Of a stretch of DNA of 37,437 nucleotides, positions 1 through 18,265 are shown one piece after another (position 1 is the first letter of the stretch; the number at the start of each line of letters is the position of its first letter). The notes beneath the pieces are model-generated. The model was given only the letters and a program-made list of their open reading frames with translations, was not told where the DNA came from and did not search any database. The position numbers and the translations under genes are program-made. The stretch lies in the IMG/VR virus record IMGVR_UViG_3300013290_000001; one strand, given 5' to 3'. Source of the DNA: a virus.

Positions 1-127
1 CCTCTCCCGCCACAACCACAATATTCGCGACCCAATCCGGATATGCTTTTATTACCACCAACGAAGAAACAATCTCTTTCGGGTTGGTTGTCACCGTCGC
101 TAGTTTAGCAATATCTCTGTGAAATGA
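1..127. repeat. Terminal direct repeat, copy 1 (identical to 37311..37437); the contig closes into a circle of about 37,310 bp
   Basis: Read directly. Both copies run cctctcccgccacaaccaca...atatctctgtgaaatga. An exact 127-nt identity at both contig ends looks like an assembler k-mer overlap. Confidence 0.9.
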
Positions 128-373
128 CTCTTCGATCTTTGCCTGCACCGCAGGGATCTCCTCTGCAGGCACTTCGGGGATAGACCGTAAAACCTCCACC
201 TTCTCGTAATCCGCCAGCAGACTCTCTGCAGCTTCCACGATTGGCTGCTCAGCAAAATCGACACTATTGATCACAACCCCATACACCAGCTCGCCATCCA
301 CCTCAACTGGTTGCGACTGGGTAACAAACTCGACCAGCTGGCCGAACTCGGGTATTTCTTGATACTTTGGCAT
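1..373 (-). CDS. N-terminal part of a junction-spanning CDS (271 aa in total, continues into 37310..36868); CBM5/12-like carbohydrate-binding repeat protein
   Basis: ATG at 373-371 is preceded by GAGAGGAG. My translation MPKYQEIPEFGQLVEFVTQSQPVEVDGELVYGVV...HRDIAKLATVTTNPKEIVSS stays open to base 1. It is in frame (279 nt upstream) with tracked ORF 36868..37404 once the duplicate end is collapsed. It overlaps the RT 3' end by 71 nt; an alternative GTG start lies at 301. Confidence 0.6.
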   Translation of the reverse strand, partial: MPKYQEIPEFGQLVEFVTQSQPVEVDGELVYGVVINSVDFAEQPIVEAAESLLADYEKVEVLRSIPEVPAEEIPAVQAKIEESFHRDIAKLATVTTNPKEIVSSLVVIKAYPDWVANIVVVAGE

Positions 374-1400
374 GATTTCTTATCACTCCTCTCGCCTGCG
401 TCAGGCTTACTATTCCTCTTACATATTTTCTGTAGAACTTAAAACTATCCGAGCGCTTGATCCATCCCCAATAAGACACGATCGCGCACGCATCCAGGTA
501 GCTCATGCTTTTCTTTTTCGCGATCTTTGCCATACGTCTGCGGATTCGCAATGAGTTTGCTTTTCGAAGCGTGGTCCTGTTTCGATAAAACTTCAATCCG
601 AGAAAATCAATGAAGCGTTTTGAAACCAGAAAAACCTGCCAGTTTTTCTTTAATCGCAGATTTTTATGATTCAAAAACTGTTCAATCTCTTTTCTTACCT
701 GATGAAGTCTTCTTTTATTACCACCCAAAATAACCAGGTCATCCACATATCGAATGTAATTCTTTACTCCTAACTTTTCTTTAATAAAATGATCCAGATC
801 CTGCAGGAAGAAATTGGAAAACCATTGGCTGGTATAGTTTCCGATCGGGAGCCCTGAATCTGTACTTTCAATAATCGTATTCACCAGCCATAAACAGTCC
901 CTGTCTTTAATAATCTTCCTAAACATCTTTTTCAACAAATCCTGATCAATGGATGGATAGAATTTTTCAATATCCATTTTCAGGCAATATTTAGTGCCCT
1001 TGTAATCGGTATCCAGTGCTTTCCTTAAAACCTTCTGGCCGTACGTCGTTCCTCTTCCGGGAACGCTGCCGCAGGTATAGGCATACATACCACGCATCAT
1101 CACCGGTTCCAGTACAAGCATCAATGCCCAGTGGATGATCTGATCCGGATAAAATCTCGGTTTGTAAATCACACGTTCTTTTTTGTGCGCCCCATCATAG
1201 ATTTTTTTCACGCTGTACGGCGACGGAACATACGTTTTTTCAACCAGCATTTTTTGTATTTCATGCGAAAAATATTCTATGTTATCCAGGACCTCTTTCA
1301 CGTGTTTGCGATCACGTTTTCCTAACGAGGCTTTCAACATGGCTGTTTTAATTGTTTGAATGTCGACAATTTTTGGGTAAAGGTATCCATAACGTTTCAT
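303..1400 (-). CDS. DGR-type reverse transcriptase (365 aa)
   Basis: Tracked ORF 303..1586 trimmed to the internal ATG at 1400 (MKRYGYLYPKIVD...). The upstream 62 codons are the template repeat read in frame. RT motifs: LKMDIEKFYPSI, LPIGNYTSQWFSNFFL (DGR-type IGxxxSQ) and IRYVDDLVILG (YxDD). It lies next to a TR/VR pair. Confidence 0.93.
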   Translation of the reverse strand: MKRYGYLYPKIVDIQTIKTAMLKASLGKRDRKHVKEVLDNIEYFSHEIQKMLVEKTYVPSPYSVKKIYDGAHKKERVIYKPRFYPDQIIHWALMLVLEPVMMRGMYAYTCGSVPGRGTTYGQKVLRKALDTDYKGTKYCLKMDIEKFYPSIDQDLLKKMFRKIIKDRDCLWLVNTIIESTDSGLPIGNYTSQWFSNFFLQDLDHFIKEKLGVKNYIRYVDDLVILGGNKRRLHQVRKEIEQFLNHKNLRLKKNWQVFLVSKRFIDFLGLKFYRNRTTLRKANSLRIRRRMAKIAKKKSMSYLDACAIVSYWGWIKRSDSFKFYRKYVRGIVSLTQARGVIRNHAKVSRNTRVRPAGRVCYPVATS

Positions 1401-1520
1401 AGTTTTCTCATTAGCCTCAAGGTTTTTCAATAATGACTTACTAGAGCCTGCTCTTTGCGGCCTGATTTTTGCCAAGTGGCATGGAAGATAGAGTGCAGAT
1501 TTTACAGAAATTCTACTAAT

Positions 1521-1631
1521 GAAAAGGCGACCACCGATATTCACGTTCGTGTTCGCGGAAGAATTATTCAGATTCCAATTCCACAAACCGGCATTCCCAC
1601 TGTTATTCCAGTTCCCGCCGACGATGGCAAT
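1521..1631 (-). repeat. DGR template repeat (TR)
   Basis: Aligns without gaps to 1774..1884 at a constant offset of 253 nt. Of 15 mismatches, 14 are at plus-strand T (A on the sense strand). The sense strand encodes 11 AAY codons (..GGNWNNSGNAGLWNWNLNNSSANTNVNIGGRLF). Confidence 0.9.
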
Positions 1632-1737
1632 CGCGCACCCTAAATCCCAAAAATTTTTTATATCAACCTCTCTCTCTTTTTTTCTTTTAATCTTTTTCTT
1701 TTCTTAAAACCTAGCCCCTAAAACCTCACAACTCATT

Positions 1738-1751
1738 GGGGGGAAGCCCCC
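1738..1751 (-). other. GC hairpin just downstream of the VR/target stop codon (candidate DGR target-recognition hairpin)
   Basis: Plus strand gggggg-aag-ccccc. On the sense strand GGGGGCTTCCCCC begins 8 nt after the TAG at 1761-1759. Confidence 0.5.
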
Positions 1752-1758
1752 AAACCCC

Positions 1759-3120
1759 CTAAAGAGCTTTTTTGAGAAGGCGACCACCGAAATTCACGTT
1801 CGCGGTCGCGGAAGAATAATACAGAAACCAATACCACAAACCGGCATACCAACCGTCACTCCAGCTCCCGCCGACGAAGGCAATTTTCTGCCCCGAAGAC
1901 TGATAATAATAATCTTTGTAGAAATTTGCGCTCACATCCACAGGCAATTCCACCATTGGGTTGGCTGGATCAAAACCCATGTATTTTACATAGTTGTTAG
2001 CATTTTTATTAACATATCCGATCTGCTCATACGGTGCTGCAAAAACATTGCTGGCATAATCATCGGCGTCTTTGCAAAACCAACCCTGGTAATCGTTGAT
2101 ATTGTATCCATCCACAAACTGCCAGACATTTCCATATAGGTTTTCAATGCCCCTGTAATGAAATGGATTTTTACCATTCGTATTATGCGCCAGAGATCCA
2201 CTACTCGCGGAAATTCCAGAACTGAAACCAGATTTCCAGCCAACATTATAGAGATAATTTCCCGTAGATGCGTTGAACGCTGCCCCATCAACCGTGATTG
2301 TCGTGCTTCCAGCTCCTGGAGTGTCCACATCAATTTGCGTGATTTTGCGACCATAAAATATTTGATTACCACCCTGACTTGTACCAAGACCAACCGGTTG
2401 GCCAACCGCAAATTTTGCACCCGTCACATTTGACACAACAATCGTATTTGCTGCCGCCGTGTCTGCTGTCAATAATTCAGTCGCTGTGTAAATACCACTC
2501 GTCCACCCAGCCATGATCGCCTGGCTATCCAAAGTTGCAAACTCAATCGTAAACAAAACCTGCAACATATCATAAACATGGATATCCAATTGCTGATAAC
2601 CATTCAGCCCACCGGTATTATTCGCCTCTGCGTAATCCCTGAAATTTACAATATTTTTATTAATCAATGGATACTGATTCGCAGCGCTCTTCAACTTTCC
2701 ACCGCTTTCGCTGGCCACATACTTCCCAACATCCACATAAGCCAGCTCTGCACCCGTCGTAAAATTGATAAAACACCACGGCAAATAACTGCCAGGCATT
2801 CGCTGCTTACAAATCTGCCAGGTCTTCAACGTGGGCGAGTCCGTCTTCCGGATGTAAAACTTCGGGATCCGGATGAACACATTCCCATCCGCGTCCGTCT
2901 CCTCCGTGAACTCGCTGAAAATCTCCGCAGTGTCAAAATCATTCGTTGCCGCGCCAGCATCCACCCCGGCCTCAGCGGTAAAACCAACCGCGCCATTCGT
3001 GCGAGTCAAAGCCACATCCGCCTTCGTCCAGCTCACGCCATAAATCGCAGCGCCTTTGAAAGTCGTCATCGCCAGGTCAATCTCTTTTCCCGGCACCAAC
3101 AATGTATTCATCCGTCCCAT
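1759..3120 (-). CDS. DGR target protein: tail-fibre/receptor-binding-like protein with a C-terminal FGE-sulfatase/C-type-lectin-like variable domain
   Basis: RBS GGAAGAGGAGAGATT precedes ATG 3120. The C-terminus GIENLYGNVWQFVDG...GGSWSDGWYAGLWYWFLYYSSATANVNFGGRLLKKAL resembles DGR variable proteins. It contains the VR and follows the tail-fibre genes. Confidence 0.88.
   Translation of the reverse strand: MGRMNTLLVPGKEIDLAMTTFKGAAIYGVSWTKADVALTRTNGAVGFTAEAGVDAGAATNDFDTAEIFSEFTEETDADGNVFIRIPKFYIRKTDSPTLKTWQICKQRMPGSYLPWCFINFTTGAELAYVDVGKYVASESGGKLKSAANQYPLINKNIVNFRDYAEANNTGGLNGYQQLDIHVYDMLQVLFTIEFATLDSQAIMAGWTSGIYTATELLTADTAAANTIVVSNVTGAKFAVGQPVGLGTSQGGNQIFYGRKITQIDVDTPGAGSTTITVDGAAFNASTGNYLYNVGWKSGFSSGISASSGSLAHNTNGKNPFHYRGIENLYGNVWQFVDGYNINDYQGWFCKDADDYASNVFAAPYEQIGYVNKNANNYVKYMGFDPANPMVELPVDVSANFYKDYYYQSSGQKIAFVGGSWSDGWYAGLWYWFLYYSSATANVNFGGRLLKKAL
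1774..1884 (-). repeat. DGR variable repeat (VR), the last ~37 codons of the target gene
   Basis: Counterpart of the TR. TR adenines are replaced by C, G or T. It encodes IAFVGGSWSDGWYAGLWYWFLYYSSATANVNFGGRLL. Confidence 0.9.
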
Positions 3121-3134
3121 AATCTCTCCTCTTC

Positions 3135-3204
3135 CCCGGTCGCCTGTTCCCGGTCTCCCGTCTTTTCTTTTCCTACCAGCTACGAGCTACCAGCTATGAG
3201 CTAT
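3135..3204. repeat. Intergenic heptanucleotide array (10 units in one register)
   Basis: cccggtc gcctgtt cccggtc tcccgtc ttttctt ttcctac cagctac gagctac cagctat gagctat. The last unit contains the stop codon (3201-3203) of the upstream gene. Confidence 0.8.
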
Positions 3205-3563
3205 CCTTTAAGAATTAAACTAAAACTCTGCGCTGCCGTCTGATTCTCACTCACCACAGTTCCCACACCCACACTGCGCAACTTCACCCACCGCGCTGCA
3301 AACAACTCATCCGGCAATTTCCTTGCCTCAGCTGCGGTTGTGGATAATCCGGAGATCTTCACGGCTGTTCCGGTCTCATCTTTCAGCGTGGTGAAGACCC
3401 CGTCTTCCTTTTCGCACACATCAAAAACAATATCCGCGGCGGTCCAGTCTTCACCATCATTCTTCAAAATCCCGCCAGCCATCTCGCGCAAATCAATCGC
3501 AGCACTCAACGCTGCCCCGGCTGCAATCGCCGCTTTTCTCACACCACTTTGTCTCGTCAACAT
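3201..3563 (-). CDS. Hypothetical protein (120 aa), tail-module position
   Basis: Strong RBS CAGGAGGATTATT before ATG 3563; TAG stop lies inside the heptad array. No recognisable motif. Confidence 0.7.
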   Translation of the reverse strand: MLTRQSGVRKAAIAAGAALSAAIDLREMAGGILKNDGEDWTAADIVFDVCEKEDGVFTTLKDETGTAVKISGLSTTAAEARKLPDELFAARWVKLRSVGVGTVVSENQTAAQSFSLILKG

Positions 3564-3584
3564 AATAATCCTCCTGAAAATTTT

Positions 3585-4520
3585 CTAAGCTATCAGTCCC
3601 AGGGACTGCAGTTTACTTTCCAATTCATCCATCCGTGTTTGCAAATTCGCGATAGCACTCAAAACACTCAATCCCTCATCCAGCGTAACAAACCCGAACC
3701 CACTCACATCCACCAGATCCTGAATCGCATAATCCGGAGTGCCAGGTGCGCTGTGGGTGATTGTTGTTTCCTGCGCGGTCAGAGCAGTCGGCTGCACCAC
3801 TGGAGTGGCATTGAAAAACGCCAGCTTCTGGGTGGTCGCGGTACCAATCTTCGTACCCGTTGTCGTTCCCAAAATAATATTTACATCACTCAATTCCTGA
3901 TTGGCTGTAAAAACGTTCGCCACAGCCAATAATGCTGCGGTCCCGGTCGCTGGAACTGTTAATGTAAAGCCACCGGTTGCAACCGTTCCACCACCAGTCA
4001 AAGTTCCAACCAGCGAATAACCAGCTGGGAACTTCCCGGCAATCCATCTGGTATTGGCGTTGTCGTACACCAAAAAAGCGATCTCATAATTAGTATCCAG
4101 GGTGATATCCTTCGCACCCACACAGTAAATATTCCCGGTCGCATGCTTGATAACCACATTCCGGCCATCATTCACACTCTGCAAAAACAAAATCAACCCG
4201 GCCGCTCCGGTATTGATCGTATCCAGATCATCACTCGCTGCGCTGGATTGTGTGTCCACCTTGTGATAATTCCCGGTGATCGTAATCACTCCGGAAGAAA
4301 TCGTAAGTGTCGATCCGGGACCACCCTTCACGTACCCGGCATTATTCATTGCATTCGCCAACCTTGTCACCAGATCCGTCGCACTTCCAGCGGGATCCGT
4401 CCCCAACTCGATTTCTATCGCTTCAACAGCGGTTTGTATATCATTTACATGTGCTGCCAAAACTTCATCAACACCATCAACTTTTGTTGTAAAACTATCT
4501 AAACTCGCAGGATACGCCAT
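3585..4520 (-). CDS. Tail fibre-like protein
   Basis: The N-terminus MAYPASLDSFTTKVDGVDEVLAAHVNDIQTAVEAIEIELGTDPAG is the common phage tail-fibre N-terminal pattern. Gly/Thr-rich middle, C-terminal coiled segment. Purine-rich RBS GAGAGGAAAAGAGA. Confidence 0.7.
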   Translation of the reverse strand: MAYPASLDSFTTKVDGVDEVLAAHVNDIQTAVEAIEIELGTDPAGSATDLVTRLANAMNNAGYVKGGPGSTLTISSGVITITGNYHKVDTQSSAASDDLDTINTGAAGLILFLQSVNDGRNVVIKHATGNIYCVGAKDITLDTNYEIAFLVYDNANTRWIAGKFPAGYSLVGTLTGGGTVATGGFTLTVPATGTAALLAVANVFTANQELSDVNIILGTTTGTKIGTATTQKLAFFNATPVVQPTALTAQETTITHSAPGTPDYAIQDLVDVSGFGFVTLDEGLSVLSAIANLQTRMDELESKLQSLGLIA

Positions 4521-4541
4521 TCTCTTTTCCTCTCTTCGTAA

Positions 4542-4577
4542 GGGTAAAGCATTTTATATCTTCAAAATGCTTTACCC
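4542..4577. repeat. 5'-UTR hairpin element, copy 1 (14-bp perfect stem)
   Basis: gggtaaagcatttt-atatcttc-aaaatgctttaccc with shared flanks tcctctcttcgtaa / actcaatcctcaaac. It lies between the stop at 4587 and the start at 4520. Confidence 0.8.
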
Positions 4578-4586
4578 ACTCAATCC

Positions 4587-7070
4587 TCAAACTTCACAAA
4601 TATTTGAAATATAAACATCATAAATTGTCAGCTGCATTGTGCTTGTCGGGTTCAAATCCCAACCCTTTATCTCAACATTGTCCAGGTACTGCCATTTATT
4701 CCACATGGAGTTCACATCAAACTGCCAGCACCTCACTTGTTTTCCATAATTTCCAGCTCCACAGCTTTTTGTCAGCCACGCATCCCCAATCGTCCCGGCA
4801 TATTCCCAGGTGCCATCCGTATAAAGCGTTCCAAATCCGATCCAGGCATTTCCACCATGATCCACATATCCCTTAATGTATGCACCAGCCTGCCCATACA
4901 CCGGAAAATTCGGGAAATAACACCACAGATTATGCACATCAAAACCAATCTGCTCGAGCGGATCAGCATTCACGCCCAAACGGCCATAATAAGACCAGTT
5001 TGCAGGTGCAAATGGTGATCGATACGATGCAGGACCATACGGAGATCCAACCGGGTACGTAGCCAGATTCTGCGGAGCGCAAATCCATCCCTCTGGGCCA
5101 CCACTAAAATCAAACGTATGTCCAATATTGAAATTAAATTCAGGGCTTACAATCGTCTTGACCTTTATTCCACCAATTACCGTACCAACGGCTGGGGCAA
5201 ACTTTGCAGTGATCCATTCTCCGGATGTAACCACCTCAGAAGCCTGAAATAATTCAGCCCCGGTACTGTCAACCGCCCAAATTTCATAAAAACCGGTAGC
5301 TTCCGTCATATACCACTTCCCGGCAACCCAAATCGTCCTCCGAGATCGAATAGTCACCGTTGTCGGGTAAGTAGAGCTGGCCATTCTCACAACCGTGCTC
5401 ACTGGAAAAATGTAATATTTTTGAACCGTCGGAGAAGAAATCAGATCCTTCGAACCGCTGAATATTGAAAAAGGTCCATTCGGCGCAGCATTCGGATCAG
5501 CAATACAATCTACCGGAACATCAATGGGCTCAGGGAATCCGGATCCACTGCCATCACCCGGTAATGTCGGAACTTCAGGCAATCCAGGATCATACGGATC
5601 ATCACTGATCGACGTCGTATCATAAATCAAGGGAGTCAGCGTCAAAATTGTCTGAACACTTTGTCCGCCTTCCTTCAACCAGCGTAGCTCAATTGAACCA
5701 ATATAAAAGGTATTCATAATGCCTAACGTAGTTGAGGTAAACGCCACCTTATCAAGCAAATCAAAATCAAATTGAATATCAGGTCTACCTTGAATGATGA
5801 TTTTCGGCGCTTTGCTCGGGTCCTTTAATTCGTTTTTGATAATTTTAGCAAAAGCCTCAGCATGGTTGATGTTCTGCAAATATTCAGAATCCAGAATAAA
5901 ACGTCTGTTTCCATATGCAGCCCGCGAGTTAGTATCACTCGCATTGAATTTTACAGCCCTGGTTACATATTCACGCCCCTTCAAATCCACTGAGGTAATA
6001 TACCCGTTGATTGGTGTCGCAACCGAAATCGTGATCGATTTCGTAGTGAGCGAATATGTGTAATCAATCACATTCGTGATCCAGATTCCGCTATTATCCG
6101 CTTTGGTGTTCGCCTGCAATCCCTCAAATGTGACATCAATATATTCCCTGTCCAGTTCTAATGTAAACGTGCGCCAGGTTGTAGAAGGCAACTCAATCTT
6201 GAATGGGCTCGGTAATGCGAGAATCGACTTCAATTCTCCCTTGAATGGTTTGTTCGCGATACACGTTACCTCATTACGCACATTTTCCCAGGGCATACTT
6301 ACCAAAATATTTTTCAATGTATCAGTCTGGTCCAGTGTATGAGTGTGTTGCGAGTTGTGCGATCTGGAAAAAAAGCAAAACCGGCCGTGCTTATTCACAA
6401 ACACATTCCCCAGTGAGGCAGTGGCTAATTTCTGCAATGTCCTGGCTGCATTCTCCTGATCTGGTGCCCAGCGAACGATCGGCTGGGTATCCGTATCTAT
6501 CGATCTCCCTCCGGAATAATCGGAATCATCCAGAACGGAATGAATACAATTTGAGATCGTCGTCCGGTAAATCGGTGTATCAACACCAATATCCCCCTCA
6601 GTCAGCAATTTCCACCCATCCACAAGGTCGATGTACATATTCTTACGGTCGTCATTCACCGGTCGAATATTTTCAATGAAACCAGTCATCAAAACAAAAG
6701 ATTCACCTGTGGAATTGTAGCGCACCGATAATTGCGCTCGTCTTCCGGGAACTACATTTGGGTACAAAGGGCTGCTGGCGTTGTAAGGGTCATAGCGACG
6801 ATCAGAATTATCCATCCGCAAAATGGCCTTCCCCATCTGCATCCGTTCAAAGTCATTTCCACCCTGCGCAACGTAATGATCACGGCCACGACGAAAACTC
6901 ACCAGCTCGTGCAGCCACTGCGCTTCATTCACTCCCTCATACGTGCCATCATTATTCCAGTCAACCAGCAAAATCCAGGTGCACTCACTATTCGCATCCG
7001 GCATTGATACCGCGGATCCAGACCCATACAGCGTGGTTGAGGTGTATTTGAAATCTCCATACTTGGCCAT
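4587..7070 (-). CDS. Distal tail/baseplate protein (Dit-like N-terminus with a long C-terminal extension)
   Basis: 827 aa immediately after the tape measure gene (TAATG overlap at 7070). The N-terminal ~200 aa resemble siphovirus distal tail proteins. Function inferred mainly from position. Confidence 0.65.
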   Translation of the reverse strand: MAKYGDFKYTSTTLYGSGSAVSMPDANSECTWILLVDWNNDGTYEGVNEAQWLHELVSFRRGRDHYVAQGGNDFERMQMGKAILRMDNSDRRYDPYNASSPLYPNVVPGRRAQLSVRYNSTGESFVLMTGFIENIRPVNDDRKNMYIDLVDGWKLLTEGDIGVDTPIYRTTISNCIHSVLDDSDYSGGRSIDTDTQPIVRWAPDQENAARTLQKLATASLGNVFVNKHGRFCFFSRSHNSQHTHTLDQTDTLKNILVSMPWENVRNEVTCIANKPFKGELKSILALPSPFKIELPSTTWRTFTLELDREYIDVTFEGLQANTKADNSGIWITNVIDYTYSLTTKSITISVATPINGYITSVDLKGREYVTRAVKFNASDTNSRAAYGNRRFILDSEYLQNINHAEAFAKIIKNELKDPSKAPKIIIQGRPDIQFDFDLLDKVAFTSTTLGIMNTFYIGSIELRWLKEGGQSVQTILTLTPLIYDTTSISDDPYDPGLPEVPTLPGDGSGSGFPEPIDVPVDCIADPNAAPNGPFSIFSGSKDLISSPTVQKYYIFPVSTVVRMASSTYPTTVTIRSRRTIWVAGKWYMTEATGFYEIWAVDSTGAELFQASEVVTSGEWITAKFAPAVGTVIGGIKVKTIVSPEFNFNIGHTFDFSGGPEGWICAPQNLATYPVGSPYGPASYRSPFAPANWSYYGRLGVNADPLEQIGFDVHNLWCYFPNFPVYGQAGAYIKGYVDHGGNAWIGFGTLYTDGTWEYAGTIGDAWLTKSCGAGNYGKQVRCWQFDVNSMWNKWQYLDNVEIKGWDLNPTSTMQLTIYDVYISNICEV

Positions 7071-8239
7071 TACATCCCACCAGCTCCCTGAATTTGCCGC
7101 ATCGCGTCATAAATCACCGGCGTCAAACGCTGTGTCAGTTCGTCTGTAGTGCCAACAATTCCATCTGAATAAACGTTGATAGTCACGCTGCCACCACCCC
7201 CGCCACCACCAGGAACAATATAACCAGGTACTGAAGGCACAAATCTTTCTTTCGTCCGTTCTCCAACATCGTACTCATATCCTGGGAAAACAGGCCCGCC
7301 ACCAGCTCGCCCACCACCGGTTGCTGCCCCATCAGGCGGAGAAGGAATAATAAATTCTTGAAAAACATTTTTCAAACCAACCACAACGGTTTGTACAGCA
7401 CTCAAAATACCAGCATAGCGCATCCAGCTTGCTTCACTGGTGCGAATTTCATCATTTGTATCTAAAATCGCAGTCATTAATTTTGTCCAACCGGGAATAA
7501 CTGTGCTCGCCCATTGATATTGAACTCGCATGGTTGCCTCCTCCATGCGGTCTTGTGCGGCTTTATATTCCATCACCGCTTCTTCTGATTTCCCGGTAAC
7601 AATCATCCACTCTTCAATTGAATCTGCATTATCTCGAATGGCTTCTGATCCTAACTCCATTATCCTTGCCATGTCCTGCCCGGCACGACCAAAGGATTCC
7701 AGTAAAAATTGCGATCTTGCAACAGGATCATCTAGCGCATTATATTGGTCGGCCAGATTGGCCAATCCTTCAATGGAAGGTGCTACACCATTTTGTGTCA
7801 TATACTTCAATGCCATCTCAACACTTTCTAACGGGATTCTCAAATCATCAGTAATCTGGAATAACTTACTCATTTCCTCTGTTGTGGTATTGGTATAAGC
7901 TGCCATGATAGAAATCTGATCTACATAATCAGAATAAATTTCTATTGAATATTTAGTGTATTCAATACCTCCCTTGATTGCTTTACCAAACAATTCCATT
8001 GCAGAAATTGGAATATTCATTCCCAAACCATTCATCAATTCAGTCGTAGAGCCAACATTCTTTCCCATAACGGTCATGCTCTCGTCCAGCTTACCAATGG
8101 TCGTCCTTGTCCCGGCCATCGTCTTCTCAATGTTGCTCAGACCCTTATCAAATTCTTTCAGTTCATCAATTGCATCATCCGTAACATTTCCACCTTCGCG
8201 GATCGTACGAACGATCATATCCAGGTTACTTTCTGCCAT
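7070..8239 (-). CDS. Tail tape measure protein (short, 389 aa)
   Basis: Follows the G/GT chaperone pair. Helical, Ala/Met/Glu-rich, with a Gly-rich C-terminus (PGGGGGGGSV). Confidence 0.75.
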   Translation of the reverse strand: MAESNLDMIVRTIREGGNVTDDAIDELKEFDKGLSNIEKTMAGTRTTIGKLDESMTVMGKNVGSTTELMNGLGMNIPISAMELFGKAIKGGIEYTKYSIEIYSDYVDQISIMAAYTNTTTEEMSKLFQITDDLRIPLESVEMALKYMTQNGVAPSIEGLANLADQYNALDDPVARSQFLLESFGRAGQDMARIMELGSEAIRDNADSIEEWMIVTGKSEEAVMEYKAAQDRMEEATMRVQYQWASTVIPGWTKLMTAILDTNDEIRTSEASWMRYAGILSAVQTVVVGLKNVFQEFIIPSPPDGAATGGGRAGGGPVFPGYEYDVGERTKERFVPSVPGYIVPGGGGGGGSVTINVYSDGIVGTTDELTQRLTPVIYDAMRQIQGAGGM

Positions 8240-8477
8240 GTTTTTCTCTCCACTCTTTCATCTTCGCCTCTACCTTCGCAAATCCTGCCTTGATCTCACC
8301 ATATTGCTCAATACTCAAAATCTGCTCAATCACATCCGATGGCACTTCATTCAAATCCCATGGCCCAAAGAACGGACCGTCCAAAATTGTGTTCAATCTC
8401 CTCGCCAGAAATACATCACCAATCAATTGCTCGCTTGTTTTTCCTCGTCTGGCTGCTTCAAAAATTCCCGCATCCAA
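8226..8477 (-). CDS. T-frame extension of the tail assembly chaperone (expressed as a G-T fusion by -1 frameshift)
   Basis: It is open in the -1 frame relative to 8423..8794 and has no independent ATG (the tracked start is TTG). It begins directly after the A9 slippery run. Confidence 0.7.
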   Translation of the reverse strand: MDAGIFEAARRGKTSEQLIGDVFLARRLNTILDGPFFGPWDLNEVPSDVIEQILSIEQYGEIKAGFAKVEAKMKEWREKHGRK

Positions 8478-8794
8478 TTTTTTTTTAGCAGATTGCGGTG
8501 CTCTTCAATCAGCTTGAAAGTCCGGATAATCAACCAGGTAAAAAACAAAGGATCACTCTCTGCAGAACTATCCATCAATTCCTTTACATCCTCCGCAGCC
8601 ATGTCCCAGATCTTCGCCAATAAATCAACATTTTCCTCAGTAGTCTCTGGTTTGAATTGTTGACCATTTTCATAAAGTTTTTCCAACATACTGCGCGATG
8701 GGTTCACCCACACCGGAATCTGAGCCTCCCCAAACTCCGGAGCATAATCCTTCAACTCAACCTTTTTCCAAATCTTCGGAATCTCAATCCTCAT
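8423..8794 (-). CDS. Tail assembly chaperone G
   Basis: Lies between the major tail and tape measure genes. ATG at 8794 has AGGAAGGG 6 nt upstream (the tracked start at 8800 is TTG). Ends ..LLKKNWMREFLKQPDEEKQASN. Confidence 0.75.
   Translation of the reverse strand: MRIEIPKIWKKVELKDYAPEFGEAQIPVWVNPSRSMLEKLYENGQQFKPETTEENVDLLAKIWDMAAEDVKELMDSSAESDPLFFTWLIIRTFKLIEEHRNLLKKNWMREFLKQPDEEKQASN
8478..8486 (-). promoter_or_regulatory. -1 programmed ribosomal frameshift slippery run (A9 on the sense strand)
   Basis: The sense strand reads CTA AAA AAA AAT TGG in the G frame and AAA AAA AAA TTG GAT in the T frame. Confidence 0.7.
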
Positions 8795-8864
8795 CCTCAA
8801 CCCTTCCTGTACCCCGTAAGGGGTAAATCCTCAATCCTCAAAACTCAAACCTACTAGCTACGAG

Positions 8865-9875
8865 CTAAATCGTTCCCCGATCCGTAATAACCTGTACATT
8901 TAACAACTTCGCGCCTGTCACATCATATTTTCCATGCAAAATCGCAGTCCAAAGATTATTTCCATTGCTTGCACTTGCCAAAGGAATCACTTCTTCCCAT
9001 GTGCCCGAGAAATCTACCTGTAGCATGTGGTACACGCCCGTACCAATTTGCGGTCCCAAAATCTTCAGCCTTGCCACCTGCAACGTCTGCAAATTCAACG
9101 CGTCATAAATTGCCTCAGCGGTCGCATTTCCTTCAAATGTGAATGCTCCATTGATCCCGATCGCGCCTTGCCCATGCGTATCAAAATACTCATTCCCGGA
9201 TCCATGGAACTTTGGGTGCATCCCGGTTATGATGTCGATATCATATGCGCGCAATGTGGAGGCTTTTTCTGTGCCACCCACTCCCGCCCAGGTTGTATCC
9301 AGATAAAACCGCGTCAACTTACTGTTGATCGTGTGCAGCGTCGGGATGGCCAGCGCACCGGTAAAACTGGCTTTCGTGTTCTGCCTGCCAAAATAATTGG
9401 CTTCAATCCGCATCGCACTATCGCCACCGTCCTGGTTGCATTCTCCGGAGAGCTTGATGCGATCGAACATCACATACTCCGATTCAACCATCATTTCATC
9501 ATCACCACGCTCCAGGGTAATCGAATCGGTTTCATTGTCAGTGTCATCATAATTCGGGTCATAATTCCATAAATAATCACCCTGGGAAACCGTCTGTTCC
9601 ACAGCAGTGATATTCCCCTGCAACCCACAGGAAAACAACATCGGCAAACTCTGAAAATAAGCAGAATCCCAACTCAGCTTATCCCGTACCAAACGCCCGG
9701 CAATGTACGAACGCACAGCATCCACATTCACGCCCACATCCTCGCGCGGGTAAGTTGGCTTCCGATCCGGTGTAATGGATGGAACTGCCACTGGTAAAAT
9801 TCTGGTTGCTGCCACCGCAGTACCATGTGTATCCTCAATCCCGTATTGCATCTTTCTCAACTTTTCAACTGCCAT
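8865..9875 (-). CDS. Major tail (tube) protein
   Basis: 336 aa directly upstream of the chaperone pair. No sheath gene is present. Function inferred from gene order. Confidence 0.6.
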   Translation of the reverse strand: MAVEKLRKMQYGIEDTHGTAVAATRILPVAVPSITPDRKPTYPREDVGVNVDAVRSYIAGRLVRDKLSWDSAYFQSLPMLFSCGLQGNITAVEQTVSQGDYLWNYDPNYDDTDNETDSITLERGDDEMMVESEYVMFDRIKLSGECNQDGGDSAMRIEANYFGRQNTKASFTGALAIPTLHTINSKLTRFYLDTTWAGVGGTEKASTLRAYDIDIITGMHPKFHGSGNEYFDTHGQGAIGINGAFTFEGNATAEAIYDALNLQTLQVARLKILGPQIGTGVYHMLQVDFSGTWEEVIPLASASNGNNLWTAILHGKYDVTGAKLLNVQVITDRGTI

Positions 9876-9900
9876 CTCTCACCTCTTTTTTTAATTTTTT

Positions 9901-9991
9901 CCTGAATCCCCAAAACCTCAAAACTCAAACCTCAAACCTCAAAACTTTTTTCCTATCAGCTACGAGCTATCTGCTATGAGCTAACAGCTAA
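9901..9991. repeat. Intergenic heptanucleotide array (13 units in one register)
   Basis: cctgaat ccccaaa acctcaa aactcaa acctcaa acctcaa aactttt ttcctat cagctac gagctat ctgctat gagctaa cagctaa. The stop of the 9974 gene lies inside it. Confidence 0.85.
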
Positions 9992-10432
9992 TCCATTCAT
10001 GATTTCCTTCACCTGCCAATTCACCACCAGCCCCAAATGCGGATCCTCATTCCCATACCGCAAAACGCCCATCGTGATCGGGTTGGTACTTGCTAACAAA
10101 AAATGCTCAACCGCGCCACCTAATTGCAAATTTGCTGCGGCCGCCACAATAATCTTTTCAAAATAAGTCAAAACAAATGGATAATTACTCTTGTTGATAT
10201 TCTTTGCAATGTGAAACTCACTCACCCCGTCATACACAGCCAGGCAAGGACCACCAGCAGAATATTGGATCTTCGGCACCCGCGGAACAATCGTCAAAGC
10301 GCAAGGAAACTCATTCAAACTTTCCGGAAACTCAGCCCGTGAGAACATCTTATATGATTTCAAACTCCCCCCCTTGCCGTTATCAATCGTCCCCCACACC
10401 TCAGCCACCTTATCAATCCAATCTGTAATCAT
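9974..10432 (-). CDS. Hypothetical neck/tail-completion protein
   Basis: 152 aa between the connector-like genes and the tail tube gene. No motif recognised. Confidence 0.55.
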   Translation of the reverse strand: MITDWIDKVAEVWGTIDNGKGGSLKSYKMFSRAEFPESLNEFPCALTIVPRVPKIQYSAGGPCLAVYDGVSEFHIAKNINKSNYPFVLTYFEKIIVAAAANLQLGGAVEHFLLASTNPITMGVLRYGNEDPHLGLVVNWQVKEIMNGLAVSS

Positions 10433-10433
10433 T

Positions 10434-10496
10434 CCTCAAACCTCAATCCTGAATCCTGAATCCTAATCCCTAACACCTAAACCCTAACCCCTAAAT
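10434..10496. repeat. Intergenic heptanucleotide array (9 units, all starting cct)
   Basis: cctcaaa cctcaat cctgaat cctgaat cctaatc cctaaca cctaaac cctaacc cctaaat. Confidence 0.85.
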
Positions 10497-11504
10497 CAAT
10501 GGTACAAAATAGTTGTATTGGATTTGTTCAATGACCGACTTCGGAAACTCATTGAAATAAAACGTCTCACCCGTCTCTACCGATCCAACCTTCCCAGCAA
10601 ATCCGGAATCAGCCTTTTTCAACATCAACGCAGCAATCTGTTTGCACAGATAATTCACATCCGGTGGCACCGTGTAGCGACTGATCGCCTTGGTATCATG
10701 CGCCGCTGCAGTCGTGCCATTCACACCGCGCTCTACATGGAAAGTCCGGTACACATATACATCCAGATTCGTCAGATGGTCCACCCTGGCAGTCCGGTTC
10801 CAGCCGCGTTCTACCAGCAAATCATTCCCGGAAATATCTCGTACCAGCATTTGTTCAAACTCAACCCGGATCACCTCGCCAATGTTAATCACCGTCCCAT
10901 CCAGCACCGTCACCTGGTCCTCTTCCGCATCCAGTGCTTCGTTCGTGTTCGTGGTCGCATCCGTCGCGGATCCAATTCCGGTCACCAGCTCCTGTTCACT
11001 TTCTATCAATAAAACCGCTCCAGGAGAAATTACACTTGCATCATCCACTACCAGCGTGGTCGCGCTGTTTGTCTGGCTGGCGACCGTCGCCTCTGTGCTC
11101 TGCGATTTTTCCCATAATCCCCAATTACCCAAAACAGACGTAACCCGGGCAATCGCAGGAAAGTAATACACCGTCCCAGAGTCCGGGTGCACCTTGATCC
11201 GCATATACGGACCATTCGCCCACAGTTTATTTTGCGGGTACAGGATATAATCACCGCTCTCCAGCTCGTCATCATCCACGGTGATCGTGGTTGCGCTCAG
11301 CAACGCAGGCACCAGCAACTCCTGGGATCCGTCCCCATCAAAATACCGCGTTTCCGAGATCGGGATAAAATTTCCGAATCTGTTCAAAATCCACTGGCTG
11401 GCAGATTGAATCATGTCATACACACGTTGTGCACCATGATTCCTCAATCCCTCATGCTCCAGATCATTCAATAACTCCTGCACCGTACAATAAACCTGTC
11501 CCAT
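10491..11504 (-). CDS. Putative head-tail adaptor/connector protein (function tentative)
   Basis: N-terminus YCTVQELLNDLE...VYDMIQSASQWILNRFG resembles gp6-type connector N-termini. Large central insertion. Position fits the neck module. Confidence 0.45.
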   Translation of the reverse strand: MGQVYCTVQELLNDLEHEGLRNHGAQRVYDMIQSASQWILNRFGNFIPISETRYFDGDGSQELLVPALLSATTITVDDDELESGDYILYPQNKLWANGPYMRIKVHPDSGTVYYFPAIARVTSVLGNWGLWEKSQSTEATVASQTNSATTLVVDDASVISPGAVLLIESEQELVTGIGSATDATTNTNEALDAEEDQVTVLDGTVINIGEVIRVEFEQMLVRDISGNDLLVERGWNRTARVDHLTNLDVYVYRTFHVERGVNGTTAAAHDTKAISRYTVPPDVNYLCKQIAALMLKKADSGFAGKVGSVETGETFYFNEFPKSVIEQIQYNYFVPLI

Positions 11505-11511
11505 AATCTCT

Positions 11512-11581
11512 CCTCAAACCTCAAACCTCAAACCTGAACCCTTCTTTTCCTACCAGCTACCGGCTACCAGCTACGAGCTAT
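11512..11581. repeat. Intergenic heptanucleotide array (10 units)
   Basis: cctcaaa cctcaaa cctcaaa cctgaac ccttctt ttcctac cagctac cggctac cagctac gagctat. Confidence 0.85.
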
Positions 11582-12105
11582 CTCTTATTACTTAAACCGT
11601 TAGCTATGTTTTCTAAGGCCTCTGCAAAATACTCTTTCACATCATCCACGCTCTTCTCAAACCCTTGCTTCAAAAATTCGCGTGCCTTGATCCCGTTCTT
11701 AGCAATCTTCCGTGCCACCAGAAAAGACACGCTCCGGATCTTCGCCTCATCTGTTTCATTGCGCAAAATCACCCGTCTTACCCAGGCAGTGATCGGCTCC
11801 ATCGGTGGGAACCTGCCACCAGGTTCTCGTCCAAATTCCATTACCTTCGGGTACACCTCATCCCGCAGAGAAGAACCCACCCGACCGATAATCGAAAGAG
11901 AAGAGATCTCCTGCACATCTGATCCGATTGACCCCCTCAACCGGCCACGATCCACAGGAACAAACGGAAGAACATTTTGCTCAATCTTCATCACAGTTTT
12001 ATCCATCGCCCGCACCAACTCGCGATTCGACAACTCCTCATAAGATTCCAGCAAAGCAATCTGCTCGCTCAATCCTTCTACCTCAATCTCATACCCAACC
12101 AGCAT
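11578..12105 (-). CDS. HK97 gp10-like head-tail joining protein
   Basis: PFVPVDRGRLRGSIG matches the conserved P-x-D-T/R-G-x-L-R-x-S motif of gp10-type proteins. Size and position fit. Confidence 0.65.
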   Translation of the reverse strand: MLVGYEIEVEGLSEQIALLESYEELSNRELVRAMDKTVMKIEQNVLPFVPVDRGRLRGSIGSDVQEISSLSIIGRVGSSLRDEVYPKVMEFGREPGGRFPPMEPITAWVRRVILRNETDEAKIRSVSFLVARKIAKNGIKAREFLKQGFEKSVDDVKEYFAEALENIANGLSNKR

Positions 12106-12137
12106 AATCTTTTCCTTTGCTCTTTTCTTTCCTCAAA

Positions 12138-12181
12138 CTTATCACACCCTATGGGTGCAAACCTCAATCCTCAAACCTCAA
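12138..12181. repeat. 44-bp intergenic repeat, copy A (identical to 20060..20103)
   Basis: cttatcacaccctatgggtgcaaacctcaatcctcaaacctcaa; contains the small hairpin caccc-tat-gggtg. Confidence 0.85.
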
Positions 12182-12183
12182 TC

Positions 12184-12459
12184 CTATTTTTTCACCGCCT
12201 TGAAAACCGTCTTATCAATTGGCTCCTGTTTACCCTCGGTCGACGGGGGCTTTTCATTAGCTTTCGCCTTACGTGAAAATTCAGCCTCAGCTACCATCCG
12301 ATTTTCTTTTAAATGAGTCTTCGATCCCACTTCCTCCAGAACCCCGGGAGAATCGCGATTTATTGCCTCAGCCATATCTTCCTTCAGGTCAACAACATCA
12401 CCCTTCAACCACGGTCCCCCCAGACTGCTCTTGTAATTCCACTTAACCTTGTACTTCAT
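12184..12459 (-). CDS. Hypothetical protein (91 aa)
   Basis: ATG at 12459 follows a GC hairpin and a purine-rich leader. Lys/Glu-rich. Confidence 0.6.
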   Translation of the reverse strand: MKYKVKWNYKSSLGGPWLKGDVVDLKEDMAEAINRDSPGVLEEVGSKTHLKENRMVAEAEFSRKAKANEKPPSTEGKQEPIDKTVFKAVKK

Positions 12460-12478
12460 TTCGCTCTCTCTTTCGTCC

Positions 12479-12498
12479 GGGCGGGGTCTCCCCCGCCC
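12479..12498. repeat. GC hairpin in a 5' leader, copy 1 (gggcgggg-tctc-ccccgccc)
   Basis: 8-bp perfect stem. The ~30-bp block gggcggggtctcccccgcccttcttttc recurs at 13363. Confidence 0.75.
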
Positions 12499-12505
12499 TT
12501 CTTTT

Positions 12506-12540
12506 CCTAACGCCTAACACCTAACCCCTAAACCCTAATC
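12506..12540. repeat. Intergenic heptanucleotide array (5 units)
   Basis: cctaacg cctaaca cctaacc cctaaac cctaatc; the last unit holds the stop at 12535. Confidence 0.8.
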
Positions 12541-12858
12541 ATCAATCACGTCACCAACATCCACCATGTAAGCCATCACATACCCTTCACCAGCAGTGAT
12601 CGCCTCATCCGGCAACACCACGTCGATCGTATCCGCAGCGCTGTACAGCTTACCACTGCCAGAATAAGCCGCTGTATTGGTCTCTGTTCCGGCATACGCA
12701 CCGACAGTACCCACTGTCACATCAGTATTATCCACCCAGCCATCCGGGTTCGCGCCATCTCCCACATCAATCGTAGGAGTACCACCAGCAAACAGCGTGG
12801 TAATAATACACACCACACTTTGCGGAGGAATAAACGTATTCTTAGGCACATCCAGCAC
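12535..12858 (-). CDS. Hypothetical head-module protein; the 5' end is uncertain (see finding at 12859..12950)
   Basis: The tracked ORF starts at GTG 12858 with no RBS. The same frame is open upstream to an in-frame TGA at 12895-12897. Confidence 0.55.
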   Translation of the reverse strand: MLDVPKNTFIPPQSVVCIITTLFAGGTPTIDVGDGANPDGWVDNTDVTVGTVGAYAGTETNTAAYSGSGKLYSAADTIDVVLPDEAITAGEGYVMAYMVDVGDVIDD

Positions 12859-12962
12859 CGCTTTCGTGCTGTTCTTATCGGCAAAGGTGAACTTTCACGA
12901 TCTCACCCACCGGCCTTTCAAACCATACTGTGCACTTGAACTTCCCACATCTCACCTCTCTT

Positions 12963-13004
12963 CCTAAAACCTAAACCCTAAGGCCTAAACCCTACGAGCT
13001 AACT
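12963..13004. repeat. Intergenic heptanucleotide array (6 units)
   Basis: cctaaaa cctaaac cctaagg cctaaac cctacga gctaact. Confidence 0.8.
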
Positions 13005-13343
13005 CGACGCTCCCACAATCCCAAACCACTGTACCCCATCACACCAGCACAGGATCGCCTCGTTCTGCGTCGGAGTACCGATCGTCGCGGGCGTATCATC
13101 CTGCACCGTGATAATCTCAGCGGCATCCGCCTCATTGCTGATTAAAATCACTACGCCCTTGCAGGCAGCCTCAGCAGGCAATACCACATTTCGGGCCGCG
13201 CCACCCGGATCAAACGAAAACCCATTGAACTGGTTAATCTCCGCCACCGTAATCGTACGATGGGCAGCCAGTGTTTCTTTCAATTTCGTGTTGATCCTAC
13301 TCGCCATATCGCTCGGCGCAATCGCAATTCTTTCTCTTGGCAT
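12999..13343 (-). CDS. Hypothetical head-module protein (114 aa)
   Basis: ATG at 13343 after a GC hairpin leader. Directly downstream of the capsid gene. No motif recognised. Confidence 0.6.
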   Translation of the reverse strand: MPRERIAIAPSDMASRINTKLKETLAAHRTITVAEINQFNGFSFDPGGAARNVVLPAEAACKGVVILISNEADAAEIITVQDDTPATIGTPTQNEAILCWCDGVQWFGIVGASS

Positions 13344-13362
13344 TTCTCACCTCTTTCTATAT

Positions 13363-13382
13363 GGGCGGAGTCTCCCCCGCCC
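13363..13382. repeat. GC hairpin in a 5' leader, copy 2 (gggcggag-tctc-ccccgccc)
   Basis: One mismatch in the stem; same flanking sequence as the copy at 12479. Confidence 0.7.
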
Positions 13383-13398
13383 TTCTTTTCTTCCCTAC

Positions 13399-13426
13399 CA
13401 GCTACGAGCTACGAGCTACAAGCTGA
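13399..13426. repeat. Heptanucleotide array (4 units) spanning the capsid gene stop
   Basis: cagctac gagctac gagctac aagctga; TAG at 13418-13416. Confidence 0.75.
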
Positions 13427-14930
13427 TGTTATACATCACATCCGCGCCTTCAATTCCACTGGCAGCACCGGTGGGAGAGAAGCGACCTAAGCCCATGCGC
13501 ATGGAGTAAACTAACCGGCTTTGATCAGATGCTGGTAACCTTTCGGTCTCCAGTTTGATCCGGCGTCTCCAGCCGACGGTAAATGCGCGGCGGTTGAAGG
13601 TTGCGATTTGGCCCAGAGTATTGTTACCGGCTGTGGTAGATACTTTCCCATCCGCTTCAGTTTTGCTCATGGCCATCGATCCGATCAATGGATGGCGTCC
13701 AACACGTGCCTGTTGACCATTCAACACAGTCGCCTGGCTGCCCATCTTATCGACGGTGATCACTTCGTCAAGCAAAGCGATCTTGTCAGCGGTATCCACA
13801 TCGGCCACATAAACCAGGTCATTCGGGTCAGTTGGATGACCCCAATCGACCTTGTAGGCGTGATCCACCATACGACCGCGCGCTTCAATCAACTTATTGA
13901 AAGTGATCGAACCAGCAACACTCAGACTATTTCCGGTATTATCGACGAGACCTGCATGACGTATACCATCCAACGCCAGGTAATGCTTGGTGTCAGCGGG
14001 ATCTGCGTCATCCAGGTTGATGTTTCCGGTCCCTGCATTGGTGGTATCACCATTCAAAACAAGCGAATCACCATAGAATGCCAGAGCTTTCTGTGCCTGT
14101 CTTCGCAGGAATGGAATGAATGGAATAATCGAATCCTCTTCCATCTCACCAGACCACATTTGATGAATCACGAATTTCTTCGCATCCACCTGCACGCGCT
14201 GCGAACCGGTTTTACTGGTTGAGTAATTGCTCGAATTGTTGGCAGTGCTTTCAGACACAAATAACATCTCAGGGAAATCAACTTCAACCGGTAGGTAAGC
14301 GGTCGGCGCGGTCATTTCAAAACTCTCCAACAATGAAAGAATCATACTCTCACGTCGGGCAGCTTCCCATAAATCGCCAACATACTGTGCACCTATCAAC
14401 TGCGAACCATATCCTGATTCCGCAGAATCCATAGCGCGGATAGCACGTTGGTAGCTTTCGGTAAGTTCGAATGAACCGCGTGCAGCCAGATTGCGATCGG
14501 GGCCATGGAACCAGCGCAGTGGAATCCGTGGGAACAGATCGTCAATTGCTTTTTTATCCATCTCACGCACTTCAGCCTCACTCAGATACATGGCATCCGA
14601 GATCGCGGCAAACGTATTGCGCAACATTTCAGAAGGACCATCATATACACCGCCACCATTGACTTTTCGTTGACCGCGTAGGGACTCCTGTAGATCGTAC
14701 AAAAATTCAATATCAGCAATACTCAAACCCCAACGTGCATACTTGGTGCCCACCAGCTTTGGCTCCACTTCCGAACCAAAACGCATCTTTCGCACGAACT
14801 TTTCATCGTCAATCAACAATGAAAATTGTTCCTGCACCAAACTGCGAATCCGTTCATCTTTTACGTTTTCGCCCAGTGACTCCATACGAGTACTGATTTC
14901 ATTCATTAATTCAACTAACTGATCGCTCAT
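13416..14930 (-). CDS. Major capsid protein (HK97-fold type, with an N-terminal coiled delta-like segment)
   Basis: 504 aa. ATGA overlap with the protease gene. Position after portal and protease, and overall composition, fit. Confidence 0.8.
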   Translation of the reverse strand: MSDQLVELMNEISTRMESLGENVKDERIRSLVQEQFSLLIDDEKFVRKMRFGSEVEPKLVGTKYARWGLSIADIEFLYDLQESLRGQRKVNGGGVYDGPSEMLRNTFAAISDAMYLSEAEVREMDKKAIDDLFPRIPLRWFHGPDRNLAARGSFELTESYQRAIRAMDSAESGYGSQLIGAQYVGDLWEAARRESMILSLLESFEMTAPTAYLPVEVDFPEMLFVSESTANNSSNYSTSKTGSQRVQVDAKKFVIHQMWSGEMEEDSIIPFIPFLRRQAQKALAFYGDSLVLNGDTTNAGTGNINLDDADPADTKHYLALDGIRHAGLVDNTGNSLSVAGSITFNKLIEARGRMVDHAYKVDWGHPTDPNDLVYVADVDTADKIALLDEVITVDKMGSQATVLNGQQARVGRHPLIGSMAMSKTEADGKVSTTAGNNTLGQIATFNRRAFTVGWRRRIKLETERLPASDQSRLVYSMRMGLGRFSPTGAASGIEGADVMYNISL

Positions 14931-15940: not shown

Positions 15941-15961
15941 CTCTCGCTCCTCTCTTCGTAA

Positions 15962-15997: not shown

Positions 15998-16004
15998 ACT
16001 CAAT

Positions 16005-18181: not shown

Positions 18182-18217
18182 ATCTTTTCCTCTAACCTTC
18201 GCGTCTCTTCTTTCTTT

Positions 18218-18252: not shown

Positions 18253-18265
18253 GTCTAATCGGAGA

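Follow-up and report, generated by a model that had tools for sequence, protein, structure and literature searches.

We found that a 37,437-nt stretch of viral DNA (IMG/VR record IMGVR_UViG_3300013290_000001; "the window" below means this whole stretch) carries a diversity-generating retroelement (DGR). A target gene ending in a variable repeat (VR), a template repeat (TR) and a gene for a reverse transcriptase (RT) follow one another on the minus strand. A preliminary description, made from the sequence alone, had reported a complete DGR like that of Bordetella phage BPP-1. The DGR itself is confirmed, with a favourable outcome in all of the suggested checks that we ran, and the likeness to BPP-1 was overstated: because we found no gene for the accessory protein Avd, the element has the accessory-free layout known as architecture A and not the BPP-1 architecture. 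We consider it highly probable that the element is an accessory-free DGR (target with VR, TR and RT; architecture A1) located where the tail module ends in a temperate phage (37.3 kb) of an Anaerolineaceae bacterium, and that it operates by the mechanism proposed below.

The TR and VR differ almost only at adenines of the TR. A repeat search aligned them without gaps at a constant offset of 253 nt (TR 1520..1631, VR 1773..1884; coding strand minus; 86% identity), as first described, and added one base to the pair 1521..1631 and 1774..1884. Comparing TR 1521..1631 with the VR, we counted 16 mismatches. The preliminary description had counted 15, missing the one at 1523/1776. Fourteen of the 16 are at a plus-strand T, which is an adenine on the coding strand. 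In total, 14 of the 27 TR adenines are substituted in the VR and, as had been claimed, all three other bases occur as replacements (T eight times, G five times, C once). With adenine at 27 of 111 positions, the hypergeometric probability of 14 or more adenine mismatches among 16 is 8.8e-9. The internal non-adenine mismatch (1598/1851, coding G to T) changes a Gly codon, GGG, to a Trp codon, TGG. It was described correctly and was not the only one: the mismatch at 1523/1776 (coding T to C), three bases from the 3' end, is also off the adenines. There are 11 AAY codons in the TR (7 AAT and 4 AAC), with adenines at codon positions 1 and 2 only, and these codons and both translations are exactly as first given. 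The VR specifies residues 413-449 of the 453-aa target protein. Differences that lie nearly all at TR adenines are those of a DGR, and the 14 substituted adenines show that this element has homed in the past.

The 3' end of the VR is constant. By its likeness to BPP-1 (PMC5758913), the last 18 nt are a putative initiation of mutagenic homing (IMH) sequence. Shortly downstream of the VR is a GC-rich hairpin that has no run of T residues after it and was not scored as a terminator. A hairpin is at the matching place in 49 of 50 distinct relatives, in which the stems differ and stay complementary. Judged by sequence, the element thus appears to have both constant ends (IMH in the VR and IMH* in the TR) and the GC-rich inverted repeat downstream of the VR.

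The repeat pair is unique in the region searched. Scanning both strands of the whole window with the TR adenines as wildcards, we found no other VR-like match to the TR. We also searched window positions 1..8000 with a repeat caller that takes adenines into account; its sole result was this pair, exactly the one that had been claimed. In a control in which the mutable base was changed, the caller made no calls with C, 11 with G and 8 with T. We read the 19 calls with G and T, which were not checked individually, as the same TR/VR pairs in the reverse direction. This control is weak because the loci tested had been preselected by an adenine call; the unbiased evidence comes from pairs of near-identical contigs.

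We found that close relatives of the element vary in the VR and at TR adenines. The same layout (a VR, a TR 177-285 nt downstream and an RT gene approximately 120 nt past the TR) was called in 66 of 80 IMG/VR relatives, and most of the uncalled ones lack upstream sequence. In three pairs of contigs (L005/L006, L013/L015 and L022/L023), the TR, the spacer, 400 nt upstream and 1000 nt downstream are identical, and the VR differs at 16-20 positions. Across all such contig pairs, 132 of 136 VR differences are at TR adenines. Since these relatives keep the TR and its flanks yet differ in the VR at TR adenines, the lineage is active. Where targets are clustered at 90% identity, multi-allelic columns accumulate within the 50 C-terminal residues, at positions with an AAY codon in the TR. 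The adenine-specific variation proposed in the preliminary description is therefore seen among relatives, with an invariant TR in the near-identical ones.

Some individual relatives are of separate interest. In one (L028, IMGVR_UViG_3300023257_001212), a single TR (4770..4873) has two matching VRs, one 187 nt and the other 3571 nt upstream, from which we conclude that this relative diversifies two targets. After the distal target comes a homologue of the 242-aa protein with carbohydrate-binding-module (CBM) repeats that is encoded next to the RT in the window. A target protein from another locus (P0176, in the cluster of P0093) has a C-terminus that resembles the unmutated TR (GGNWNNGANAG...NLNNTSSNTNVNIGG) and then departs from the conserved ending of the family. 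It is probably the product of an assembly jump from VR to TR, or else of fresh unmutated homing. Rarely, the TR varies at 1-2 positions with an unchanged VR in otherwise identical contigs (L062 versus L063-L065, and L071 versus L073). L004 (IMGVR_UViG_3300048591_000671) encodes an RT 66% identical to that of the window and has no TR/VR pair within 5 kb on either side. L003 gave no call in the strict scan, and its TR/VR pair is present with more non-adenine mismatches. These two are possibly decayed cassettes or cassettes with a remote target.

The gene next to the TR encodes an RT that resembles those of known DGRs. The protein matches Pfam RVT_1 and phrog_1423 (E = 4e-109). It contains LPIGNYTSQ and YVDD, both noted in the preliminary description. 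IGNYTSQ fits [I/V/L]GxxxSQ, the signature that DGR RTs have in place of QGxxxSP (PMC7826257), and the two motifs together would place the protein in the DGR clade. Its best match among solved structures is 8ub7 (E = 4e-28; next best 2e-16). From the residue numbering (K29, F66, R74, I76, I181, G182, Q187, D215 and D216, as in Handa et al., 10.1101/2023.10.23.563531), we identify 8ub7 as the Bordetella phage RT, bRT. K29, R74, I76, I181, G182, Q187, D215 and D216 are kept in the RT of the window; R74 and I181 promote adenine mutagenesis by bRT (PMC7826257).

A mechanically called open reading frame (ORF), 303..1586, was rejected as the RT gene; it runs in frame through the TR, and the gene in fact starts with the ATG at 1400. 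Annotation easily goes wrong here: the mechanical ORF and a public 413-aa gene call (L110, 7477..8718) both fuse part of the TR to the RT. Relatives of the RT are encoded in Bacillus benzoevorans, Pseudogracilibacillus, Atopostipes, Clostridia, Alistipes and other genomes.

We found that the spacer that separates the TR from the RT gene contains a conserved structured RNA, Rfam family RT-18 (RF03021). The match covers the full model (positions 1-84 of 84) and scores 59.4 bits against a gathering threshold of 41.3. RT-18 is at the matching place in all 20 relatives tested, with scores of 50.6-74.5 bits. When published, RT-18 had no function assigned to it; of the RT motifs, RT-10 alone was linked to a DGR (that of BPP-1), and roles for the others were speculative (Weinberg et al. 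2017, PMC5737381). A sarcin-ricin loop has been assigned to both RT-10 and RT-18 (PMC13085918), and its UAGUA...GAA is invariant in this element and its relatives.

Two further helices, outside the Rfam RT-18 model, join the spacer to the TR and its flank. We refer to them as duplex F, which brackets the TR, and duplex P0, which includes the TR 3' end. In alignments of 45-48 distinct relatives, 11 of the 15 pairs of duplex F have compensatory changes and 89.7% of cells are paired. Duplex P0 has compensatory changes between UA and CG, with 85.7-88.9% of cells paired. The two duplexes are mutually pseudoknotted. Over all six helices (38 pairs), 91.4% of cells are paired, versus 39-47% with the partners slid by 1-3 columns. 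Compensatory changes were found in 26 of the 38 pairs, and none of 500 shuffles reached the observed values. In the spacer, the P0 strand and the RT gene's ribosome-binding region (consensus CTAATAAGAAGG, 4-10 nt ahead of the ATG) overlap, and for this reason folding of the template RNA could compete with translation of the RT.

We did not detect an Avd gene. The gaps that separate the VR from the TR (141 nt) and the TR from the RT gene (119 nt) hold no ORF. Avd was absent from the Pfam families listed (25 of 38) for the 113 ORFs of 75 aa or more in the window, and from 142 basic ORFs (95-175 aa) within approximately 3 kb of the cassette in approximately 30 relatives. With pI values of 5.1 and 4.5, the proteins encoded on either side of the cassette are acidic, and neither matched Pfam. 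Nothing found beside the TR or RT thus resembles the Avd of BPP-1-type elements, a basic four-helix bundle of approximately 128 aa. Target, TR and RT succeed one another on one strand, and no gene for Avd, HRDC, MSL or CH1 was recognised, which is the arrangement of architecture A1; no HRDC or MutS family is in the Pfam lists, and HRDC, MSL and CH1 were not searched with dedicated profiles. Based on these results we suggest, tentatively and with somewhat less than even confidence, that the lineage is a minimal Avd-independent DGR of one RT, with a basic C-terminal extension, and one RNA. RT-18, the TR-bracketing duplex and the duplex of TR 3' end and spacer would then do the positioning with which Avd helps in BPP-1.

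Two neighbouring genes were considered as sources of an accessory factor. The 120-aa upstream gene was rejected, its product being acidic and without a homologue in the loci of relatives. The 242-aa downstream gene was not counted, its product (pI 4.5) being acidic and not Avd-like. An alternative call of the downstream gene gives 271 aa from an ATG at 373, with a 70-nt overlap with the end of the RT gene. A homologue of the 242-aa protein follows the RT in 17 relatives. The protein could be a second adhesin or a passenger of the cassette, and its membership in the element is uncertain.

The target gene is located at the end of the structural genes. The order on the minus strand is large terminase (TerL), portal-MuF, protease, major capsid, neck, several unknowns, a tape-measure-like gene, genes for proteins of 827, 311 and 120 aa, and the target. 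From this order the target is the last gene of the structural (tail) module, a place that suits a fibre. The protein matches phrog_5302, "tail protein" (E = 4.7e-38). It has no match in Pfam or NCBIfam, and we found more than 814 homologues. The gap of 80 nt between the 120-aa gene and the target gene contains two tandem 14-nt copies (CTACCAGCTACGAG / CTACCAGCTATGAG; 3173..3200).

An AlphaFold2 model of the target, built from 73 homologues, has a predicted local distance difference test (pLDDT) score of 87 and a predicted TM-score of 0.89. In a Foldseek search the top PDB match of the model was TaqVP, a DGR variable protein of Thermus aquaticus (5vf4; E = 1.4e-10, probability 1.0). PvdO, TvpA and Mtd were further down the list at weak E-values. 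Based on this model, the VR codes for the C-terminus of a predicted C-type-lectin fold, the fold that the preliminary description had proposed. The top match among predicted viral structures (BFVD) is named "Tail collar fiber protein" (E = 8e-36, TMq 0.85), and crAss-like phage proteins are also among these matches. The claim that the target is encoded among tail-fibre genes holds for its place at the end of the structural module and its matches to tail proteins and fibres; it does not hold for the immediate neighbours, which have no recognisable function.

We propose the following mechanism. In the RNA of the TR and the 120-nt spacer ahead of the RT gene, the TR would be looped out and closed by the 15-bp duplex F (1648..1634 with 1497..1483), and the TR 3' end (1524..1518) would pair with the strand just past the RT-18 core (1412..1406). 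By analogy with the Bordetella phage element, P0 would be the template-primer duplex and cDNA would be primed in cis from an adenosine of the spacer. Synthesis would start just 5' of P0, near 1525/1526, with random incorporation opposite template adenines, and may stop at the bracketing duplex F, 3 nt past the 5' edge of the TR/VR homology. A stop at F fits the end of the TR/VR homology at 1631, 3 nt from F. Because the T/C mismatch at 1523 is within P0, it would never be copied, which fits a start at P0. The cDNA would replace the VR, and its targeting would probably rely on the GC-rich 3' end of the VR, which is constant, and on the hairpin that lies 20 nt downstream. Up to 27 positions in the 11 AAY codons could be recoded on the predicted ligand-binding face of the C-terminal domain, and receptor specificity might change as a result.

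Several observations weigh against this interpretation. Two of the 16 TR/VR mismatches are off the adenines. A scan of the coding strand upstream of the TR returned no sigma-70-like promoter, and total promoter counts were not above chance. Avd shows little conservation, and our searches could have missed a helper that is divergent or unrelated. The pLDDT of the target model is lowest (65-73) across the VR residues, and searches with Pfam and PHROG profiles recognised no tail function in the immediate neighbours of the target. The VR and at least 7.4 kb around it are identical in ENA ERZ27315036, JGI 3300034783 and JGI 3300002498; we saw no diversification of this copy in these three identical contigs from three samples. 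The 90%-identity cluster of the window target has only one member. Exact-protein look-ups returned three contigs only, all with one VR. A pattern made from the VR flanks and verified on the window had no match in the metagenome and viral collections, and a 50-mer from the TR and spacer had none in the metagenome collection.

These results might also indicate that the DGR is a fossil, which diversified in the past and is now inactive in this phage, with the VR a frozen allele. The identical VRs and the single-member cluster are as expected for a fossil, and so are the one internal non-adenine mismatch, a C-C mismatch in stem P3 of RT-18, and an RT-18 score below those of 15 of the 20 relatives tested. 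However, the RT ORF is intact with all catalytic and signature residues, and every RNA helix, the hairpin and the constant 3' end are intact. Moreover, 13 of the 27 adenine positions are still A in the VR, which therefore has not drifted. The phage is evidently mobile, since circular and integrated forms were seen. The three samples may represent one culture lineage, and assemblies give the majority allele only. We consider a fossil unlikely, and this copy may still be active, although its VR is identical in the three samples.

We regard it as similarly improbable that the DGR works on a target that is not a receptor-binding fibre. Such a target could be a virion decoration, a collar whisker or a protein of the lysogen surface, and its variation would not switch host range. 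The neighbours of no known function are consistent with this notion. The cassette is also modular: target, TR and RT recur jointly and move between unrelated phage backbones, and the three genes upstream have no homologue in the loci scanned. The "tail collar fiber" names of the best viral fold matches are themselves predictions. In contrast, the target comes last in a module that is collinear from head to tail, where it is preceded by a tape-measure-like gene and a candidate distal tail protein of 827 aa, and it matches a tail-protein family. The one phage DGR target of this fold that has been tested, Mtd of BPP-1, is a receptor-binding protein (PMC5758913). A role of the target in tropism is probable.

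An ordinary partial gene duplication with a chance adenine bias, beside an unrelated RT of a group II intron, a retron or a defence system, is refuted and in our view has practically no chance of being correct: Pfam gives only the generic RVT_1 and the best NCBIfam E-value is to a group II intron RT model, but the adenine bias is far beyond chance, the RT scores far under the NCBIfam cut-offs (99 versus 300 for group II intron, 81 versus 235 for retron and 72 versus 200 for Drt, and likewise for the Abi RT models), the Rfam scan found RT-18 and no group II intron or retron RNA, and the layout recurs in 66 relatives with VR-only changes between near-identical contigs.

Table 1. Features of the DGR and its surroundings (window positions).
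Feature	Position	Strand	Remarks
Target gene, tail-fibre-like variable protein	1759..3120	-	453 aa; VR at C-terminus
Variable repeat (VR)	1773..1884	-	encodes IAFVGGSWSDGWYAGLWYWFLYYSSATANVNFGGRLL
IMH-like constant 3' end of VR (putative)	1773..1790	-	TCGGTGGTCGCCTTCTCA; no adenine substitutions; one T/C difference from the TR end (1776 versus 1523)
GC-rich hairpin	1736..1753	-	7-bp stem TTGGGGG/CCCCCAA, 4-nt loop; 20 nt 3' of the VR homology, just past the stop codon
Duplex F, 5' strand	1634..1648	-	3 nt upstream of TR; pairs with 1483..1497
Template repeat (TR)	1520..1631	-	27 adenines in 1521..1631; encodes IAIVGGNWNNSGNAGLWNWNLNNSSANTNVNIGGRLF
Duplex P0, 5' strand	1518..1524	-	TR 3' end (IMH*-like); pairs with 1406..1412
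Duplex F, 3' strand	1483..1497	-	conserved box TGCACTCTATCTTCC
RT-18 RNA (Rfam RF03021)	1404..1481	-	hairpin P1 at 1470..1481, then stems P2-P4; UAGUA/GAA (sarcin-ricin-type) loop
Duplex P0, 3' strand	1406..1412	-	AATGAGA; candidate primer strand, just after the RT-18 core
DGR reverse transcriptase gene	303..1400	-	365 aa, pI 10.1; start ATG at 1400
Gene for 242-aa acidic protein	1..286, continuing across the circular junction at 37310..36868	-	three CBM5/12-like repeats; directly after RT

The window represents a complete temperate phage of an Anaerolineaceae bacterium, which was seen in circular and integrated form. The window ends, 1..127 and 37311..37437, are an exact 127-nt direct repeat. 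This repeat marks the window as a circular contig with a unique length of 37,310 bp, and a JGI contig (3300034783 Ga0376972_00144; 37,365 bp) is identical to it across the circular junction. In two other contigs (L081 and L082, position 7880) the phage is integrated, and identity ends at window position 36831. The integration junction is inside the last 40 nt of a gene for a large serine recombinase (35264..36871, plus strand). Past the junction are a patatin-like gene and genes for PRK, MreB and MreC of the host, and the adjacent MreB is 96-97% identical to Anaerolineaceae proteins from metagenome-assembled genomes. To our knowledge, few phages are known for the Anaerolineaceae. A megablast search of window positions 1..25000 against 50,697 phage records gave no match.

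Other genes of the phage were noted in passing. There is a second recombinase, a tyrosine integrase (32501..33418, minus strand); only the large serine recombinase abuts the integration junction. A DUF5131 protein is encoded at 25122..26162 (minus strand; E = 8.5e-101). The gene at 27121..30180 (minus strand) encodes a 1019-aa protein with an N-terminal DnaG zinc finger and a Toprim domain, and its other approximately 650 residues belong to no family.

DGRs in phage tail fibres are well catalogued, and the element itself adds little to that catalogue. Our results connect RT-18, an orphan family in Rfam, with the DGR template RNA in an abundant lineage without detectable Avd (92 confirmed IMG/VR matches). 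The covarying helices mirror the primer and "stop" duplexes of BPP-1, and this suggests that the RNA logic of a cis-primed, bounded cDNA is kept without Avd. The system is compact, has apparently one protein, and can be tested as a mutagenesis tool. If it is indeed independent of Avd, then RT-18 would have a function, and a two-part cassette of approximately 1.4 kb (TR RNA and RT) could serve for programmable adenine mutagenesis. The window also adds a complete temperate Anaerolineaceae phage in both its circular and integrated states.

The element shares much with the BPP-1 DGR (mtd-avd-TR-brt, architecture B). Both are encoded by phages, with a VR at the 3' end of a gene for a tail-fibre-type protein of (here predicted) C-type-lectin fold, and with an adenine-rich TR of AAY codons directly upstream of the RT gene. 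Both RTs have IGxxxSQ and YxDD, and bRT residues R74 and I181 are kept here. In both, the VR is followed by a GC-rich hairpin whose loop has 4 nt. Both have a duplex of the TR 3' end with the spacer and a duplex made from sequences that flank the TR on both sides. In BPP-1, the TR:spacer duplex positions the adenosine used for priming and the first base of the template at the active site. The other duplex, of sequence upstream of the TR with sequence downstream of it, belongs to an element called cPRT Stop, which, going by its name and the abstract of the paper, terminates cDNA synthesis (10.1101/2023.10.23.563531).

In contrast to BPP-1, there is no avd gene here, and only 141 nt of non-coding DNA separate the VR from the TR. 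The spacer RNA is RT-18 and not RT-10, and we recognised no stem-loop like that bound by Avd directly after the TR. The RT is 37 residues longer, mostly at its C-terminus. The target cannot be aligned in sequence to Mtd, and its fold is nearer to that of TaqVP. The host is a member of the Chloroflexota.

In its genes, the element fits architecture A1 (PMC5758913), with a core of target (VR), TR and RT on one strand and no accessory gene. In a curated survey by Wu et al. (2018, PMC5758913), 75 of 372 DGRs were accessory-free and one RT lineage had no avd throughout; a share of 29% of a curated set is also given for accessory-free DGRs. No RNA scaffold is described there for A1, whereas a conserved scaffold of RT-18 and two long-range duplexes is present here. 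TaqVP (PDB 5vf4), a DGR-diversified protein of C-type-lectin fold, is the best structural match over the whole target (TM 0.42-0.51). It differs in being cellular and not a phage tail protein, sequence identity is only 13-14%, and the whole-chain root-mean-square deviation is approximately 10 Å, so the domain arrangement differs. Lastly, the spacer RNA matches RF03021 as published (PMC5737381) over its full length, on the same strand as the RT gene and immediately upstream of it, and unlike in the Rfam model, two further covarying helices flank RT-18 here.

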